Shown one piece after another: positions 37,957-52,379 of a stretch of DNA of 64,000 bases. The stretch is from NCBI GenBank assembly GCA_965228895.1, contig OZ245842.1, positions 3,648,001 to 3,712,000 on the forward strand, written 5' to 3'. The notes under the pieces are model-generated. The model was not told the origin of the DNA, did not search any database, and worked only from the letters and a program-made list of their open reading frames with translations. The stretch comes from Alphaproteobacteria bacterium. GTDB taxonomy: Bacteria > Pseudomonadota > Alphaproteobacteria > SP197. A program made the position numbers and the translations under genes. Position 1 is the first letter of the stretch; every line of letters begins with the position of its first letter.

Positions 37957-38191
37957 CCATTCCCCGATTGAGTTCCGCTGTTTACGGACTGTTAAGACTT
38001 AGAACAGCTCTCACTAAGCGTTTGAATCCGCGCCATAAAACTCGCTCATTTTGTTGACGTCTGACATTTTGATCAGTCATCCAAAACGCGAAAACGTTTC
38101 ATCCCGCAATGATCTGAGAAACTTCGGCCATGAGCAGCGTCGTCTAGCCCTTCTGCCTAGATCTACCTCGTCCGATTGGAGGGGCAACACC

Positions 38192-38584
38192 ATGGAACCG
38201 ACGACCTGCACGTACGTTATTGGTAGAGATCAGAGCGCGCGAGAGAAGCTGCACCGTTCTTTTGAGGCGACCGGCCTCGGCGCAGCCTGGCAGGCCGAGA
38301 GCCTGCACTCCCTGATGCCGCCGCATATCTGTTATCCCGAACCCAACATCGTTCTGGTCGACATCACCCACATGGCGGGTGATCTCAGGAACCAGTTGGT
38401 CGAGATCCAAAACGAATATCCCGGCGCGACGTTCCTTTTGATGAGCGAAAAGGTCACCTCAAGCCTGCTCATGGAGTACCTGCCGATCGGCATCGGTGGC
38501 GTGCTGCCGCTGGATATCGACCCGCAGATGCTGCGTTACTCGCTGGAATTGCTGCTCGACGACACGCTGATGGCGATGAACTGA
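38192..38584 (+). CDS. Atypical single-domain receiver-like protein
   Basis: GGAGG RBS; PNIVLVDI, FLLMS and GIGGVLP follow REC topology but the conserved Lys is absent. Confidence 0.6.
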   Translation: MEPTTCTYVIGRDQSAREKLHRSFEATGLGAAWQAESLHSLMPPHICYPEPNIVLVDITHMAGDLRNQLVEIQNEYPGATFLLMSEKVTSSLLMEYLPIGIGGVLPLDIDPQMLRYSLELLLDDTLMAMN

Positions 38585-46867: not shown

Positions 46868-47050
46868 GCTGCACTCCCTCGCTGCGTCACCGCCTGTGTG
46901 ACGGCCCTCCGCCCTTCGCTATCGCGCCATTGTCGTCACCTGCCGGAACGATGCAACCGCCGACTGTTCGCTTGCGAGGCAGTCTCAACAATGGAACAAC
47001 GCGTACCCGCCATGGGAGATACTGATGACCAGACAGAAAGACGCCCATTC

Positions 47051-48190
47051 ATGAGCGCCCTCTTCGAGCCGATCAGCTTTCGCGGCGTCTCCATCAAGAA
47101 CCGTATCGCCGTCTCACCCATGAGCCAGTATCGCGCCAAGGATGGTCACGCCAACGCTTGGCACCTCGTCCATCTCGGCCGGTTCGCACTGGGCGGCGCC
47201 GGTCTCACGTTTGTCGAAGCGACCGCCGTTGAGGCGCGCGGCCGGCGCACGCCCGGCGATCTTGGCCTGTGGTCCGACGATCATATCGAGTCTCTTCTAC
47301 CGGTTACCGAGTTCCTGGCCGCCGAAGGCTCGGTGCCCGGCATCCAGCTCGGCCATGCCGGGCGCAAGGCATCCGAACGGCGTCCATGGCATGGCGAAAC
47401 ACCGGTGACCGACGAAGACGTGACGCTGCGCGGCGAGGCGTCGTGGCCAGCTATCGCGCCGTCACCGCTGCCCTATGACGAAGACTGGCCGGAACCGGCG
47501 GCAATGAGCGACGACGATATTGCCGATATCATCGCCGCGTTCGGCGATGCCGCCCGGCGCGCGGCCGACGCGGGCTTCCGCGTGCTCGACGTCTATGCCG
47601 GCCACGGTTTTCTGATTCACCAGTTCTTGTCGCCGCTCGCCAACACACGCACCGACCGCTGGGGCGGCGACGGCGCCGGGCGCCGCCGCCTGGCCGTCGA
47701 AGTCGCGCGCAGCATCCGCCGTCAGTGGCCCGACGATCTGCCGCTCCTGTTTCGGCTGTCGGCGACTGACTGGATTGACGGCGGCATCGAGCCCGACGAC
47801 ACGGTCGAGACAGCCCGCGCGCTCGCCACCGAAGGCGTCGACATGATCGACTGCACGACGGGCGGTATCGGCGGGCGCAAACGTCCGGCCCGCATGGCGA
47901 TCAGCCAGGGTTTCCAGATCCCCTTTGCCGAGCGTATCCGGTCCGAAGCCGGCATCGCCACCATGGGAGTCGGCTTCCTGTGGGATGCCGAGGTCTGCAA
48001 CGCCGCCGTCGCCGATGGCAAGGTCGACATGATCGCGCTCGCCCGCGAACTGCTCGACGATCCCAACTGGCCTCTGCACGCCGCCGCCCAACTGGGCGAC
48101 GACGAAGGCCACGCCCTGTGGCCGCCGGAATCCGGCTGGTGGCTCAACCGGCGTGACCGGCTGGTCAAAAAGCTCGGCTTGCGCGATTAG
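47051..48190 (+). CDS. NADH:flavin oxidoreductase (Old Yellow Enzyme, YqjM/XenA-like)
   Basis: KNRIAVSPMSQY, VEATAV, GIQLGHAGRKAS, HQFLSP, ARELLDDPNWP. Confidence 0.92.
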   Translation: MSALFEPISFRGVSIKNRIAVSPMSQYRAKDGHANAWHLVHLGRFALGGAGLTFVEATAVEARGRRTPGDLGLWSDDHIESLLPVTEFLAAEGSVPGIQLGHAGRKASERRPWHGETPVTDEDVTLRGEASWPAIAPSPLPYDEDWPEPAAMSDDDIADIIAAFGDAARRAADAGFRVLDVYAGHGFLIHQFLSPLANTRTDRWGGDGAGRRRLAVEVARSIRRQWPDDLPLLFRLSATDWIDGGIEPDDTVETARALATEGVDMIDCTTGGIGGRKRPARMAISQGFQIPFAERIRSEAGIATMGVGFLWDAEVCNAAVADGKVDMIALARELLDDPNWPLHAAAQLGDDEGHALWPPESGWWLNRRDRLVKKLGLRD

Positions 48191-50915
48191 CGCCCACGCA
48201 CTTCTCCTGGGCCGCAATTCGGTCACAGTGAGCGACACATCGTGCGCCGGGCAACGGCGGATAGCTGGGTTCTCTGAATGGGTGAATATCCGCGACAGCC
48301 AAGGCCGTCTCGCGAACTCCGAAGTCAACGTCTGCGCCCTCGGCATCGACCTGGACAACACAATGGATCACGAGGCGGTGCTGCTCGCGCGCGAGCCATA
48401 GCTGGGTCGAGGCCGTGAAGGCCCGCATAGTCGACGGCCTGATCGTTGGCAGCGCCACCGCCCAGCACATGGATCCGGATGGTGTAACAACGTCAGTCGA
48501 GATTACCCTTACTAGCGCAGTGACTTAGCTGACAGGCGCGACCAGGCATTAGCGATATCGCCCGAAGTGCTGTGGAGTGGTTATCTGTCTGCGTCTGTGA
48601 GCTATGGCAAGATGGTAGTCCAGGGAATGCTAGACAATGCGGTCCACATTGAGTTGCCCACTGTCGTTTGGATAGCCCCTGACAACACCATGGTCTTGAT
48701 TCTCGAAAATGTGTTGGGGTCAGTCTTGGCGAGCTTTTCAAGTGTCGCATTCAGTTCGCTTTCCTGCTCAGCCGTGGCTCGGCCGTCAGCCTTCAATGCT
48801 ACAAGTTCTCCAAAAACTTGAACCAACTTCTCTGATTCTATGGATACGTCCTGGCGCAAACCCCTCAAAAGAGCAAACCACCTTTCGTCGGAAGAGTGAG
48901 CGGTATCCAATGCTCGCGTGAGCAGTAAGATAAGATCTGCGTAGGTCCTCTGTGCAATTTCGTCCGCGTGCTCGATTCTTTGCGCGAGGGCTGCGCTCTT
49001 TTCCTTCTCTGCCTCTATCAGTCTCCTGTTGAATTCCTCCAATTGTCCGATTTCTCGGTCATGAAAACGTCTCTCCGCTTCGATAACCCTTTGTTCATTT
49101 CTCAGCATGAGCGCAGCTTCGTCGAGCTTGTTCTGCAAACGAACTACAAGTATGTCGTTTTCGAAAGCTGCCTCGGCCGTGCTATTCCCAGATAAGACGT
49201 CAGCATACTTCGACAGCAGTTTGTAAACCCCATCCACGTGCTGCGCACGAACTTGGATTTCCATTGCAATACCACTATCGGTTCTTCTAATAGTTGCAGT
49301 AGAGCCGAGGCCAGATATCGAGTTGTCCAGGATGTCCTTGAAAAAGGAAAGAAGTGCAGTCGCAGCATTTGCAGCCGGTCGATCTACGTTGCAACTAACC
49401 GTCACGGTCTCGTTGCGCGGGACTATCGATTTCCAATGTATACCCTTTAGGTCTTCGACTAGGTCGAGCCTTTCCCAAGGAAACCCATCGACCTCGTGTG
49501 CATTGCGGCCAAAGGCACCATAAACGTTTGAAAACTTGTAAATCGGTCGCTGCAGTTGAAATCTTTCGCGAATGGCCCTTGGCCGCAAGTCAACGATCTC
49601 GGCAACTTGCGCCTCTAGCTCTGTCTCCGATATCTCCGACGTTCCAAAGGTTTGTATGTAAATGGCAACCGGACTAGAAACACCCAGCTCGTATTGGATT
49701 TGCACCTGGCAGCGCTTAGCAATTCGTGCGGCGACAATATTCTTTGCGATGTACCGCGCCATATAGGAGCCAGACCGGTCAAGCTTCGTCGGATCGAGGC
49801 CAGAATGAGCCTTACTTGGATAGGGAATTGCGCCTCCATAGGTGTCTGCGCTCACGAGGCGCCCCGACTGCCCCACGTCTCCGTCAGGGCCGCCAATTAC
49901 GAAACGTCCAGACGGATTTATGTAGAGACGATCGGTGGCACACATCCAGGAATTGGGTACAGCTTCCAGAATATGCGGCATCACGACGTCAGCAACATCG
50001 TCAACATACGCGTCCATGCTGTGTTGAGTTGAAACAGTGATCGTCGTGCATCCAGTTGGGAGACCGTCTTCATAGGCCATCGTAACCTGACAGTACGCAT
50101 CTGGCCCCAAGATGGTTTCTTCATCGGCATGACGTGCCTTGCTGAGAAGCCGCAAGATCTTGTTCGCCAAACAAATTGGCGCAGGCATTAAGTCCTCGGT
50201 TTCCTCTGTGGCGTATCCGTAGACGGTGATATTGTCGCCCGCACCTTCATCCATACTTGCGGTGTCAACACCCATTGCAATGTCTAGGGATTGGGAGTCG
50301 ATCAGAGTAGCCAAGTCCAGCGTCTTCCAACTGAATCCTTCTTGATCGAAACCGATCTGGCGAACTGTCTGGCGAACAATGCGATCAAACTCGGCAGTGT
50401 AGTCGAATTGCTCCGCACACCGAATCATGCCGGCCATGATCATGTAGTTCGTAGTAGTCAGTATCTCTATAGAAGAGCGACTAAATGGATCGCGCTGCAA
50501 AAGTTCGTCAAGGACCGCATCAGCAACAATGTCTGACAACTTGTGAGGATGGCCCTCGGAGACTCCGAAGGCGGTTTCCAGGCGGGGCCGACCTTCGCCT
50601 ATCGAACCATACGAGGACAAAGGAATCAAAGAGTTGCTTTGCATATGCGCACTCCATCGCCTGGTCATGTGTAGTAGCTGACAAAGGTAGCCTGGGCCTA
50701 GGGTTTCTTACGTTCACGAGTCGAGCCAATATCCTAGTTGTTGAGGCTTCTGGCCGGTAAGATCGCGCATCCCAAGCTGGGATCATTGATCTCCATTCCC
50801 GTCGAGTATTGTGTTATCGACGAAGTTGGCCATCAATTGAAAGATCATCCACGCAGCACGTCCGGTGTGTCCTACGTCGAGGATAAAGCGTGCCATGACT
50901 CTTACCTTACGCCGT
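48191..50915. mobile_element. Small horizontally acquired islet (no integrase) bounded by duplicated OYE 3' ends
   Basis: Spot counts of 60-nt lines in the cargo gene give ~45-58% GC versus 77% for one line of the OYE gene and visibly GC-rich flanks; direct repeat 47875-48190 / 50916-51132. Confidence 0.7.
48602..50644 (-). CDS. Catalytically degenerate MetK (SAM synthetase) domain fused to an alpha/beta + coiled-coil + hydrophobic-tail module; putative decoy/sensor
   Basis: MetK fold at ~50590-49443 (SEGHPHK, GAGDNI, PDAYCQV, STQH, GRFVIGGPDGD, DTYGG, DPTKLDRS) with catalytic residues replaced; ~280-aa C-terminal extension; GGAG RBS before ATG 50644. Confidence 0.85.
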   Translation of the reverse strand: MQSNSLIPLSSYGSIGEGRPRLETAFGVSEGHPHKLSDIVADAVLDELLQRDPFSRSSIEILTTTNYMIMAGMIRCAEQFDYTAEFDRIVRQTVRQIGFDQEGFSWKTLDLATLIDSQSLDIAMGVDTASMDEGAGDNITVYGYATEETEDLMPAPICLANKILRLLSKARHADEETILGPDAYCQVTMAYEDGLPTGCTTITVSTQHSMDAYVDDVADVVMPHILEAVPNSWMCATDRLYINPSGRFVIGGPDGDVGQSGRLVSADTYGGAIPYPSKAHSGLDPTKLDRSGSYMARYIAKNIVAARIAKRCQVQIQYELGVSSPVAIYIQTFGTSEISETELEAQVAEIVDLRPRAIRERFQLQRPIYKFSNVYGAFGRNAHEVDGFPWERLDLVEDLKGIHWKSIVPRNETVTVSCNVDRPAANAATALLSFFKDILDNSISGLGSTATIRRTDSGIAMEIQVRAQHVDGVYKLLSKYADVLSGNSTAEAAFENDILVVRLQNKLDEAALMLRNEQRVIEAERRFHDREIGQLEEFNRRLIEAEKEKSAALAQRIEHADEIAQRTYADLILLLTRALDTAHSSDERWFALLRGLRQDVSIESEKLVQVFGELVALKADGRATAEQESELNATLEKLAKTDPNTFSRIKTMVLSGAIQTTVGNSMWTALSSIPWTTILP

Positions 50916-51132
50916 GCGCAAGTGTCCGGCACGCATGGCGATCAGCCAGGGATTCCAAATCCCCTTCGCCGAACAAATCCGCGCCAAAGCCGGCATCGCC
51001 ACAATGGGCGTCGGGCTCCCGTGGGATGCCGAGGTCGGCGACGACGAAGGTCACGCCCTGTGGCCGCCGGAATCCGGCTGGTGGCTCAACTGGCGTGACC
51101 GGCTGGTCGAAAAGCTCGGCTTGCGCGGCTAA
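50916..51132 (+). pseudogene. Orphan 3'-end duplicate of the OYE gene with a 99-nt internal deletion
   Basis: RKCPARMAISQGFQIPFAEQIRAKAGIATMGVGLPWDAEV|GDDEGHALWPPESGWWLN...; lacks the equivalent of 47996-48094. Confidence 0.9.
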
Positions 51133-52379
51133 AAACGATCCGCCCTGAACGGTGCGAGGTCCAGGCCGGGATCGCGGCCTGAGACGAGGTCGGCAATGAT
51201 CGCGCCCGTTCGCGCACCCAGTGTCAGGCCCAGGTGCTGGTGGCCGAAGGCGAACCAGCAGTCGCGCACGCCGGGTGCCGGACCGATCATCGGCCGGAAG
51301 TCCGGCAAGGTCGGACGACGGCCCATCCAGGCCGTCATCTTTGGTTTGTCGATACCCTCAAGTTCGCGCAATACCGGTCGTGCGCGCCGCCAGATGGTTT
51401 GGCCGCGCTCATGGTTCTCAGGCGCGTCGACGCCGGCGAGCTCCACGGTGCCGGCAAGACGCAGCCCGGTCGTCGTCGGGTTGATGCCATAGGCGTGCTC
51501 GTAATGCAGGCAGACCCGCGTCAAGGCGCTCTCGAAGCCGTCAAGCTCGACGTGATAGCCGCGCTCGGCCTCCAGCAGCACGCGGACCCCCATCATGTGC
51601 GCCAGACGATGCGAGAACGCACCGGCAGCGACCACCAGCTTGTCGACCGGCATGTCGCCCCGGTCCGTCTTGAGGCCGGTGACCCGGCCGTTCTCGACCT
51701 GCATGTCCTCTACCTCGGCCTGAACGAACCCGTTCGCTTGACCGGCGCATGCCTGATCGGCGATGGCGCGGGTCAGAAGGCCGGGATTGTTGGTGCTGTA
51801 AACGGTCGGGAAGAAGATGGCGCGTGCGACCTGGTCCGACAGGGCCGGCTCCATCTGGCGGATCTCTTCGCGCGCCAGTTCGTCAAAGTTGGCGCCGAAC
51901 GTCCGGTTCATATCGCGCCGCCATGTGTCGTCGGCGAACGTCTGCTCGCTGCGGTAAAGGCCCAGAAGGCCATTGCGCCGGATGTAGCGGTCAGCCTCGG
52001 TGTCGCGCACGATCGCGTCATAGGCCGACGTCGTGCCATTCAGAAGGCTCGCCATCGCGACAGCGGTGCGTTGCTGATCGGCGGTCGTGCAACCGCGCAC
52101 CAGCGCGGCCAGCCACGGCATCATCTTGAGGAGATAGGACCAGCGGATGACAAGCGTCGCATCCTTGTTGAACAACATCGACGGGATGTCTTTGAGAAGA
52201 CGTGGCGACGGCGGCTGGACCGACGAACCGAGTGTCGAGATGACGCCCGCATTCCCGAACGAGCAGCCCATGCCGGGCTCGATACGGTCGAGCAGCGTCA
52301 CCTCGTGACCGGCCAGCGCCAGATAACGCGCGCAACACGCGCCGATAATGCCGGCGCCGATAACCGTAACGTGGCTCAT
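51129..52379 (-). CDS. FAD-dependent D-amino-acid dehydrogenase (DadA/DAO family)
   Basis: GAGIIG, CSFGNAG, ERGYH, WMGRRPTLPD, FGHQHLGLT. Confidence 0.92.
   Translation of the reverse strand: MSHVTVIGAGIIGACCARYLALAGHEVTLLDRIEPGMGCSFGNAGVISTLGSSVQPPSPRLLKDIPSMLFNKDATLVIRWSYLLKMMPWLAALVRGCTTADQQRTAVAMASLLNGTTSAYDAIVRDTEADRYIRRNGLLGLYRSEQTFADDTWRRDMNRTFGANFDELAREEIRQMEPALSDQVARAIFFPTVYSTNNPGLLTRAIADQACAGQANGFVQAEVEDMQVENGRVTGLKTDRGDMPVDKLVVAAGAFSHRLAHMMGVRVLLEAERGYHVELDGFESALTRVCLHYEHAYGINPTTTGLRLAGTVELAGVDAPENHERGQTIWRRARPVLRELEGIDKPKMTAWMGRRPTLPDFRPMIGPAPGVRDCWFAFGHQHLGLTLGARTGAIIADLVSGRDPGLDLAPFRADRF

Follow-up and report, generated by a model that had tools for sequence, protein, structure and literature searches.

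A predicted MetK pseudoenzyme fused to the constant module of a sporadic gene family: a candidate conflict protein in an alphaproteobacterium

Introduction

Bacterial conflict systems that combine constant modules with hypervariable, often inactive domains of cellular enzymes were described by Kaur, Burroughs, Iyer and Aravind (2020, eLife; PMC7159879). The main text of that paper names pentapeptide, TPR, caspase/CHAT and TIR domains, inactive MinD/ParA and FtsK and, rarely, FtsZ among the domains involved, and it proposes decoy or dominant-negative action for the inactive ones; the idea of an inactive enzyme as a decoy is therefore not new. Integrated decoys of plant nucleotide-binding leucine-rich repeat (NLR) proteins, such as RRS1-WRKY, are invoked in the sections considered here of the work on bacterial bNACHT11 (PMC11702601). 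The S-adenosylmethionine (SAM) synthetase MetK is a phage target in E. coli, where phage T3 SAMase forms a complex with it, and more divergent SAMases lack the residues that bind MetK, according to the parts of Andriianov et al. (2023, bioRxiv) considered here. We analyzed a gene that encodes a MetK-like domain fused to a C-terminal module, located in a 64,000-nucleotide stretch of an alphaproteobacterial genome (GTDB lineage SP197; assembly GCA_965228895.1, contig OZ245842.1, positions 3,648,001 to 3,712,000 of the forward strand). This stretch is referred to as the window, and coordinates are those of the window unless another locus is named.

We favor, with moderate confidence, the reading that this fusion gene was acquired horizontally and that its product acts on its own as a conflict protein, most likely against phages; the disabled MetK would be the input or binding domain and the C-terminal module the output or assembly domain. 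The product is probably a conflict protein rather than an enzyme, because it joins a MetK fold that appears catalytically dead to the constant module of a sporadic, mobile family with hypervariable partners. The novelty lies in the layout as a single gene, in the module itself and in several of the domains joined to it, namely MetK, DnaA, ATP-cone and Clp.

Results

The MetK-like domain

The fusion gene is an open reading frame (ORF) on the minus strand at 48602-50644, which encodes 680 aa from the ATG at 50644 and ends in the stop codon at 48602-48604. An alternative in-frame ATG at 50668 gives 688 aa (ORF at 48602-50668, minus strand), and residue numbers of the fusion protein refer to this 688-aa form throughout. 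The 680-aa product is likely, because a GGAG Shine-Dalgarno-like motif, read from the sequence at 50652-50655 (minus strand), lies 7 nt upstream of the ATG at 50644 and because this form is the same as the protein database copy, P0002.

The MetK-like domain comprises residues 32-408 (49445-50575, minus strand) and has the three-domain fold. All three MetK Pfam families (PF00438, PF02772 and PF02773) were matched, the N-terminal domain at residues 32-127 (3.9e-23), the middle domain at 141-256 (4.3e-30) and the C-terminal domain at 258-400 (3.7e-46), and the TIGR01034 profile gave 370.9 bits against a cut-off of 309.4. An earlier note on this DNA had described the N-terminal part as an end-to-end MetK with lineage-typical motifs. 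The profile matches bear out the former, and LGPD, GGPDGD and an insertion before FPWE are common to the fusion protein and the host MetK. The fusion protein is 680 aa long versus 383-422 aa for the 119 nearest MetKs, and a normal metK (498 bits) is present elsewhere in the genome, 1.15 Mb away.

Residue states were read from an alignment to E. coli MetK chains and are given in E. coli numbering. We found TSES changed to TAFG (E8F), GHPDK to GHPHK (D16H), GGEI to AGMI (E55M), GAGDQG to GAGDNI (Q119N/G120I), DAKSQ to DAYCQ (K165Y) and GRKII to GRLVS (K245L). HGGGAFSGKD was changed to YPSKAHSGLD, with which the Gly-rich phosphate loop is gone and K265 is replaced by leucine (K265L). H14, K17, E42, Q98, D118, D163, R229/F230, D238, R244, K269 and D271 were kept. 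Every substitution and every retained residue listed in the earlier note was recovered in this alignment. D16, K165, K245, K265 and the HGGGAF loop positions fall in columns at least 97% conserved among 120 MetKs, and these residues and the Gly-rich loop are reported to be essential for the triphosphate/Mg chemistry of E. coli MetK. D163, R229, F230, D238 and Q98 line the adenosine and methionine pocket of MetK, and the adenosine-pocket residues are kept in the fusion protein. These comparisons show that a MetK fold is retained in a domain that is, as judged from the alignment, non-catalytic through its lost Lys, Asp and P-loop residues.

The same residues bear on whether the protein could still be an enzyme, with an atypical adenosyl-transferring or SAM-using activity in a remodelled active site. 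The score above the TIGR01034 cut-off and the presence of H14, K17, R244, K269 and D271 would agree with such an activity. However, D16, K165, K245 and K265 are replaced by non-equivalent residues and the phosphate loop is missing, and we regard a surviving enzymatic activity as very unlikely.

We examined how far the MetK part has diverged. It is 46% identical to the host MetK and at most 52% identical to any MetK found, and its nearest MetKs with a source name are alphaproteobacterial (Kiloniellales and Rhodospirillales) and ~75% identical among themselves. The terminal branch leading to the MetK part measured 1.34 substitutions per site versus a median of 0.03 and a next-longest branch of 0.31. 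In the alignment of 120 MetKs, the consensus residue was retained at 127 of the 175 columns that are at least 97% conserved (73%; 48 changed), and in the less conserved column classes at 39 of 87 (45%), 18 of 63 (29%) and 13 of 63 (21%; Fisher p=4e-15). By the same check, the host MetK keeps 174 of 175 such residues and the true MetK with the longest branch keeps 171 of 176. This graded retention suggests that structural constraint of the MetK kind continued to act on the fold while 48 near-invariant positions were substituted, and with the alignment it supports the proposal in the earlier note that the fold was maintained while catalytic residues were lost.

A phage origin of the MetK domain was considered and is not supported, as phage-borne MetKs (at most 44% identity to the MetK part) and plasmid-borne MetKs (at most 47%) are no closer than the chromosomal alphaproteobacterial ones. 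Long open MetK frames in three other genomes were found to be upstream read-through and not fusions.

The constant C-terminal module

The C-terminal part of the fusion protein carries the constant module of an unnamed family, at residues 431-682 (48623-49378, minus strand). A word-index search with the C-terminal 279 aa matched nothing except the protein itself, and an exhaustive phmmer search of 1.84 billion representatives returned 84 proteins at E<=1e-3 including the query, with a best foreign E of 6.7e-11. A hidden Markov model (HMM) made from the first-round alignment confirmed 81 of the 83 foreign matches; the two that it did not confirm were excluded, one being a fibronectin repeat protein and the other a protein of 1733 aa. 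When the genome was searched with a profile from eight short module-only members, built without this protein, the ORF was the sole match, at E=1.2e-23 over positions 16-185 and, for the module tail, at 4.4e-7 over positions 177-230. That the C-terminal part is a real conserved module, as had been proposed, is thus borne out by phmmer, the HMM and the independent profile.

The module is ~235 positions long. Its start is alpha/beta-patterned, with the consensus R.I.FPPE.KQAGISILSYF..IL..KYP...V.IEQ.G..V.L.I.TP.G..E.IE..L..YGLVV.G, and it is followed by a heptad-spaced helix, a variable helical stretch and a conserved Gly-rich end. The heptad-patterned helix corresponds to residues ~511-560 of the fusion protein (48989-49138, minus strand), where the family stretch reads L..KLE.A.LELR...ER...RI..LE and 3-4 hydrophobic spacing is seen by eye. 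The tail motif at 48644-48679 (minus strand) is KG.IQG.AGN.LY in the family and SGAIQTTVGNSMW in the fusion protein, with G664, G671 and N672 kept, G668 changed to T and Y675 changed to W.

Of the coiled coil and hydrophobic tail that the earlier note had predicted, the former is seen as the 3-4 spacing of the family consensus. A strict heptad scan of this protein's C-terminus gave no window, and the coiled-coil claim therefore rests on consensus spacing read by eye. The tail proved weakly hydrophobic: its best 19-residue Kyte-Doolittle mean is 0.82 versus the ~1.6 usual for a transmembrane (TM) helix, a value reached by 2 of 81 family tails. By hydropathy, the tail of the fusion protein is thus not a TM helix.

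Sequence searches of the PDB with the module profile, a typical-member profile, a 1747-aa member, a Vibrio member and this C-terminus gave nothing significant. NCBIfam holds no model for the module, Pfam and PADLOC gave no match to it, and a metagenome scan with the fusion protein's own C-terminus found no relative. Many family tails end in LPK, MPK, FPK or IPK (P0139, P0148, P0149, P0150 and others), and the fusion protein ends in ILP (48605-48625). A link to Clp-type recognition or proteolysis is conceivable from the xPK tails together with the N-terminal ClpX zinc fingers and Clp_N domain of the family.

Architecture of the family

We found that one constant C-terminal module is paired with very many unrelated N-terminal domains. 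The module lies C-terminal, behind a variable N-terminal part, in 135 of the 136 family proteins examined (129 unique), and the layout is the same in the 81 confirmed database members. The 118 N-terminal parts of at least 60 aa fell into 60 BLAST clusters, 41 of which are singletons, the MetK part being one of them. Pfam names some N-terminal parts only; among 82 members it identified pentapeptide repeats in seven, GerE, REC, XRE helix-turn-helix (HTH) and ClpX-type zinc-finger domains in two each, and DnaA ATPase, FtsZ, ATP-cone, GAF, Clp_N, LRR and TPR domains in one each. Longer members contain TIR plus TPR, CHAT, PAS, or pentapeptide repeats plus a ClpX zinc finger. In the 1747-aa member (locus L029, 5013-10256, plus strand), the module occupies the very end (1516-1731), and the preceding 1500 residues gave no Pfam or PDB match.

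The DnaA fusion contains an AAA+ core that reaches the DnaA equivalog cut-off and is 44% identical to the DnaA of the genome analyzed here; its Walker motifs are in place, and domains I, II and IV are missing. The FtsZ fusion falls short of the FtsZ cut-off, shares 31% identity with the FtsZ of this genome and carries SVSIND instead of NLDFAD in the T7 loop.

MetK active sites lie at dimer interfaces. A dead MetK in the effector position might co-assemble with the host MetK and, once the module is activated, turn SAM synthesis off or adjust it, and by analogy the FtsZ and DnaA fusions would poison division and replication initiation. TIR and CHAT effector domains do occupy the same N-terminal position, an FtsZ with an altered T7 loop and a DnaA core stripped of domains I, II and IV are as expected of dominant-negative subunits, 73% of the near-invariant MetK columns are kept, and dominant-negative action is named for inactive enzyme domains in the main text of Kaur et al. 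2020 (PMC7159879). We consider a poison or regulatory subunit unlikely, however, given that identity to the host MetK is only 46% and that most N-terminal domains of the family are of binding or sensor types (pentapeptide, HTH, REC, GAF, PAS, TPR and LRR).

Distribution, mobility and neighbors of the family

Searches with the module profile detected the family in 2 of 400 other Pseudomonadota genomes and in 6 of 201 genomes of one bacterial family, two of which had been chosen as known carriers. The named hosts are Vibrio, Photobacterium, Chromatiales, Geminicoccaceae, Polaromonas, Syntrophales, Desulfobacteraceae, SAR324 and Planctomycetaceae. The family gene was lower in GC than its surroundings in 41 of 48 loci, a set that includes several near-duplicates and some short loci. 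Tyrosine integrases alone recurred as neighbors (6 loci); no conserved partner gene besides them was found across the family loci, and the family therefore looks like a single-gene unit.

Five family loci are on viral contigs. A 458-aa member (gene _41 of Vibrio phage 1F53_PE003; L031, 1457-2833) is located in a P2-like prophage, in opposite orientation and directly after the tape-measure gene, which is a moron-like position. Another member is carried by a mobilizable Polaromonas plasmid, where its neighbors are an XRE regulator, an integrase and methyltransferase/PDDEXK/helicase genes.

Known defence genes were sought with PADLOC among 75 ORFs of seven loci. The strongest matches were SIR2-APAZ (1.9e-198), short prokaryotic Argonaute (pAgo; 6.8e-192) and dCTP deaminase (8.7e-107), and weaker ones were mad2, RT-protease, Csa3 and two PDC candidates. 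In L017 (9590-14150), a ClpX-type zinc-finger member lies on the same strand as SIR2-APAZ, 204 nt upstream of it, and the short pAgo is, we infer, the next gene after SIR2-APAZ. In L018, the dCTP deaminase is two genes downstream of the family gene. Defence neighbors occur in L017, L018 and L032; unremarkable loci have ilvC (L030), TelA (L013) or TPR proteins (L016), and the member in genome G176 sits among metabolic genes. These results suggest a defence association of the family. Its partner domains are hypervariable, it is rare and low in GC, integrases, prophages and some defence genes lie near it, and TIR and CHAT fusions occur, all of which are features of a conflict gene.

These data also bear on a cellular role outside conflict, in which the pseudo-MetK would be a SAM-, methionine- or adenosine-binding regulator or scaffold and the module a general assembly or localisation domain. 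Such a role would be in keeping with the retained adenosine/methionine-pocket residues (D163, R229, F230, D238 and Q98), with the many N-terminal domains of the family that belong to ordinary signalling (REC, GAF, PAS and HTH), and with the position of the fusion gene and the G176 member among metabolic genes. We nevertheless think it improbable. The family is sporadic, low in GC, linked to integrases, prophages and plasmids and includes TIR/CHAT fusions, and the fusion gene was not found in the same-genus genomes searched; a sporadic, low-GC, mobile pattern therefore fits an accessory conflict gene better than a core regulator.

Integrity of the fusion gene

The GC content of the ORF is 0.51-0.53 versus 0.60-0.68 in the rest of the window. 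The probability of 688 stop-free codons at the ORF's base composition is 4.8e-15, which excludes a chance ORF. Contigs from two studies each cover 48137-51081 including the domain junction: a single 2963-nt contig in run X1 with 0 differences, and a single 2945-nt contig in run X2, from another study and under another organism label, with 9 differences. The fusion is therefore not an assembly chimera, a possibility that the earlier note had raised, and the intact low-GC 680-aa ORF that it had reported is upheld by the ORF call, the GC profile and these contigs. The X2 version of the fusion protein is P0211 in the protein collection, with 679 of 680 residues identical.

Between the X1 and X2 strains, 2 of 2043 nt differ in the ORF, one synonymous and one E to D, neither of them disruptive, versus 7 of 902 nt in the flanks (Fisher p=0.005), this being a small sample of two strains in which the clustered flank differences may be one event. 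Marine metagenome run X4 yielded two contigs of 151 nt, one identical to 50465-50615, at the 5' end of the gene, and the other to 50664-50814, upstream of it, which places the strain or the insertion in seawater samples. A promoter scan at the locus found none, and terminator-like matches were near chance level. No Rfam match was obtained in 47800-51400 or around the true metK; a riboswitch therefore offers no contrast between the pseudo-MetK gene and metK.

The insertion and its surroundings

The fusion gene and its short flanks form a low-GC tract at about 48480-50905 (~0.46-0.55, with two scan intervals at 0.60). An intact OYE-type NADH:flavin oxidoreductase gene is located at 46898-48190 (plus strand), and its 3' end is the left copy of a repeat. 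The right border of the insertion is a duplicated, internally deleted OYE 3' end at 50910-51132 (plus strand), 84-93% identical to 47869-48185. This second copy has a 99-nt internal deletion and overlaps or abuts the stop codon of a convergent DAO-type gene. The duplicated last ~320 nt of the OYE gene look like the scar of a 3'-end integration for which a surrogate end was supplied. No integrase was found at the locus of the fusion gene. A GC-rich 290-nt stretch (48191-48480) lies between the OYE stop codon and the low-GC tract; 48206-48256 resembles the native post-OYE sequence of a same-genus genome (76%), the rest of 48191-48480 gave no match, and three of the nine inter-strain differences fall in it.

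The MetK-like fusion gene was not found in the genomes searched for it, two of the same genus and 38 other related ones. In the same-genus genome G001, the slot between the OYE and DAO genes is occupied by a different, 305-aa gene (L004, 502-1419, minus strand; ending ...HDDHIHIEVRS), and the slot is therefore a site of gene turnover in the genus. Judged from these genome comparisons, the fusion gene is horizontally acquired, a recent and lone acquisition in a variable slot.

The neighbors of the fusion gene are the OYE-type and DAO-type oxidoreductases, a TauE exporter, a PfkB kinase, a deacetylase, an Lrp regulator and a methyltransferase. A search of this genome for BREX (PglZ) was negative, and one N6_Mtase frame is present 2.8 Mb away; there is therefore no link to SAM-dependent defence. 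Elsewhere in the window, a local GC dip (0.56) at 38051-38584 (plus strand) contains a 177-aa ORF that looks receiver-domain-like by eye.

A further question is whether the gene is a relic without function, acquired by transfer and now decaying but still free of a stop codon. It is a singleton, both of its halves are the most divergent of their families, and the broken OYE duplicate flanks it, all of which would be expected of a relic. On the other hand, the 680-codon frame is open, with the chance probability given above, MetK consensus retention is graded with conservation, hallmark module residues are kept, the Shine-Dalgarno motif and start codon are good, and inter-strain differences are fewer in the ORF than in its flanks. 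We judge a relic quite unlikely.

Discussion

If the fusion protein is a conflict protein, the pseudo-MetK would bind something instead of making SAM. Its partner could be a MetK-targeting phage protein, for which it would act as bait, or an adenosyl ligand such as SAM, for which it would act as a sensor. The heptad helix would relay the binding signal to the Gly-rich tail module, and assembly of this module would then arrest growth or block the invader. The sensor version is kept open by the retained adenosine-pocket residues. The binding of a phage protein to a decoy and the abortive-infection step are purely conjectural, and the data agree just as well with a ligand sensor or a poison subunit. 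The bait version draws on the T3 SAMase-MetK complex, as presented in the parts of Andriianov et al. (2023, bioRxiv) considered here.

In its strongest form, the bait version would make the fusion protein a true integrated decoy that guards SAM synthesis and the whole family a single-gene bait library for attacks on essential host machines. MetK-binding phage proteins, such as inhibitors of the SAM-lyase type, would bind the dead MetK, and the tail module would abort the infection; FtsZ, the DnaA AAA+ core, ATP-cone, Clp_N, the ClpX zinc finger and DNA-mimicking pentapeptide repeats would be further baits, all mounted on one constant module. We regard this extended proposal as rather doubtful.

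A number of results weigh against a conflict role of the fusion protein. The earlier note had proposed looking for defence genes nearby and for homologs with the same fusion, and neither was seen. No defence gene was found within ~8 kb on either side of the fusion gene, which has metabolic genes around it and no defence island. No second MetK fusion was found among 48 family ORFs from fetched loci, 87 database members and 72,556 plasmid records, nor in the best 150 of 277 MetK matches from 300 genomes of the class. PADLOC 2.0 assigned 0 families to the fusion protein and none common to the 82 members, and the defence association of the family is anecdotal, resting on raw neighbor counts. Of 18 ligand-contact residues, 5 are lost, about the same fraction as for the conserved columns (48 of 175), and a selective loss of catalysis is thus partly a post hoc reading. 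The fusion protein is also the most divergent member of its family, with 25 identical and 14 similar residues at 58 consensus columns (other members: median 46 identical, minimum 32). The R.I.FPPE.KQAG motif, present in strict form in 27 of the 83 phmmer matches, is absent from it: gaps fall in the R, I, F and P columns, while E is changed to P, Q to N and G to A. This divergence of the module could also mean decay.

In the undescribed single-gene family, one constant module carries copies of essential host proteins (MetK, FtsZ, the DnaA core, ATP-cone and Clp parts) as well as many sensor domains. If the conflict reading is true, a recognisable host enzyme now serves as the sensing domain of a bacterial immune protein, the inactive-enzyme decoy idea that Kaur et al. 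2020 put forward on computational grounds would become directly testable with one gene and MetK-binding SAM lyases, and the N-terminal domains of the family would point to host proteins commonly attacked by phages. If the protein is instead a poison subunit or a SAM sensor, it would still be, as far as our searches show, the first bacterial MetK pseudoenzyme described. The literature searched describes neither a MetK decoy nor a MetK pseudoenzyme nor the present module, the source-data architecture lists of Kaur et al. 2020/2021 being outside its scope. The main text of Kaur et al. 2020 (PMC7159879) makes no mention of MetK, DnaA or ClpX.

Compared with MetK as defined by TIGR01034, the fusion protein has the full three-domain fold, with identities of 46% to the host MetK and of up to 52% to MetKs of alphaproteobacteria. 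It differs from MetK in the 48 changed columns of the 175 near-invariant ones, among them D16, E55, K165, K245, K265 and the HGGGAF loop, in a C-terminal extension of 270 aa, in its very long branch and low GC, and in being a second copy in the genome. AbiTi (PADLOC PDLC02333) matches the tail region of P0166 (residues 470-585) at 4.6e-7; this is 1 of 82 family members, and the fusion protein does not match. Bacterial Schlafens, in the account considered here, likewise consist of one polypeptide with a constant part and diverse fused domains and are sporadically distributed. They differ in that the constant module described here, known from sequence alone, has no recognisable enzymatic or pore-forming signature.

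The systems in the main text of Kaur et al. 2020 are multi-gene, with MoxR-vWA, GTPase or peptidase cores, whereas no conserved partner gene accompanies the present family. Two constant modules of Kaur et al. (2020, 2021) were compared by description, and the present one does not appear to fit either. EACC1 has a single conserved TM helix, and the module here has none by hydropathy, which makes EACC1 unlikely. TRADD-N is an RRM fold in which a Ser between beta2 and beta3 is conserved, whereas the conserved turn residues of the module are Q and G.

The decoys of plant NLRs, as invoked for bNACHT11 in the sections considered (PMC11702601), resemble the fusion protein in being a copy of a host-target domain. 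There the copy is built into an immune protein as bait, and no NLR or STAND NTPase is present in the fusion protein. The T3 SAMase-MetK complex, in the parts of Andriianov et al. considered here, belongs to the E. coli and T3 system and not to this host. The fusion protein has one feature expected of an integrated decoy, namely homology to the phage-targeted MetK combined with the loss of catalytic residues.

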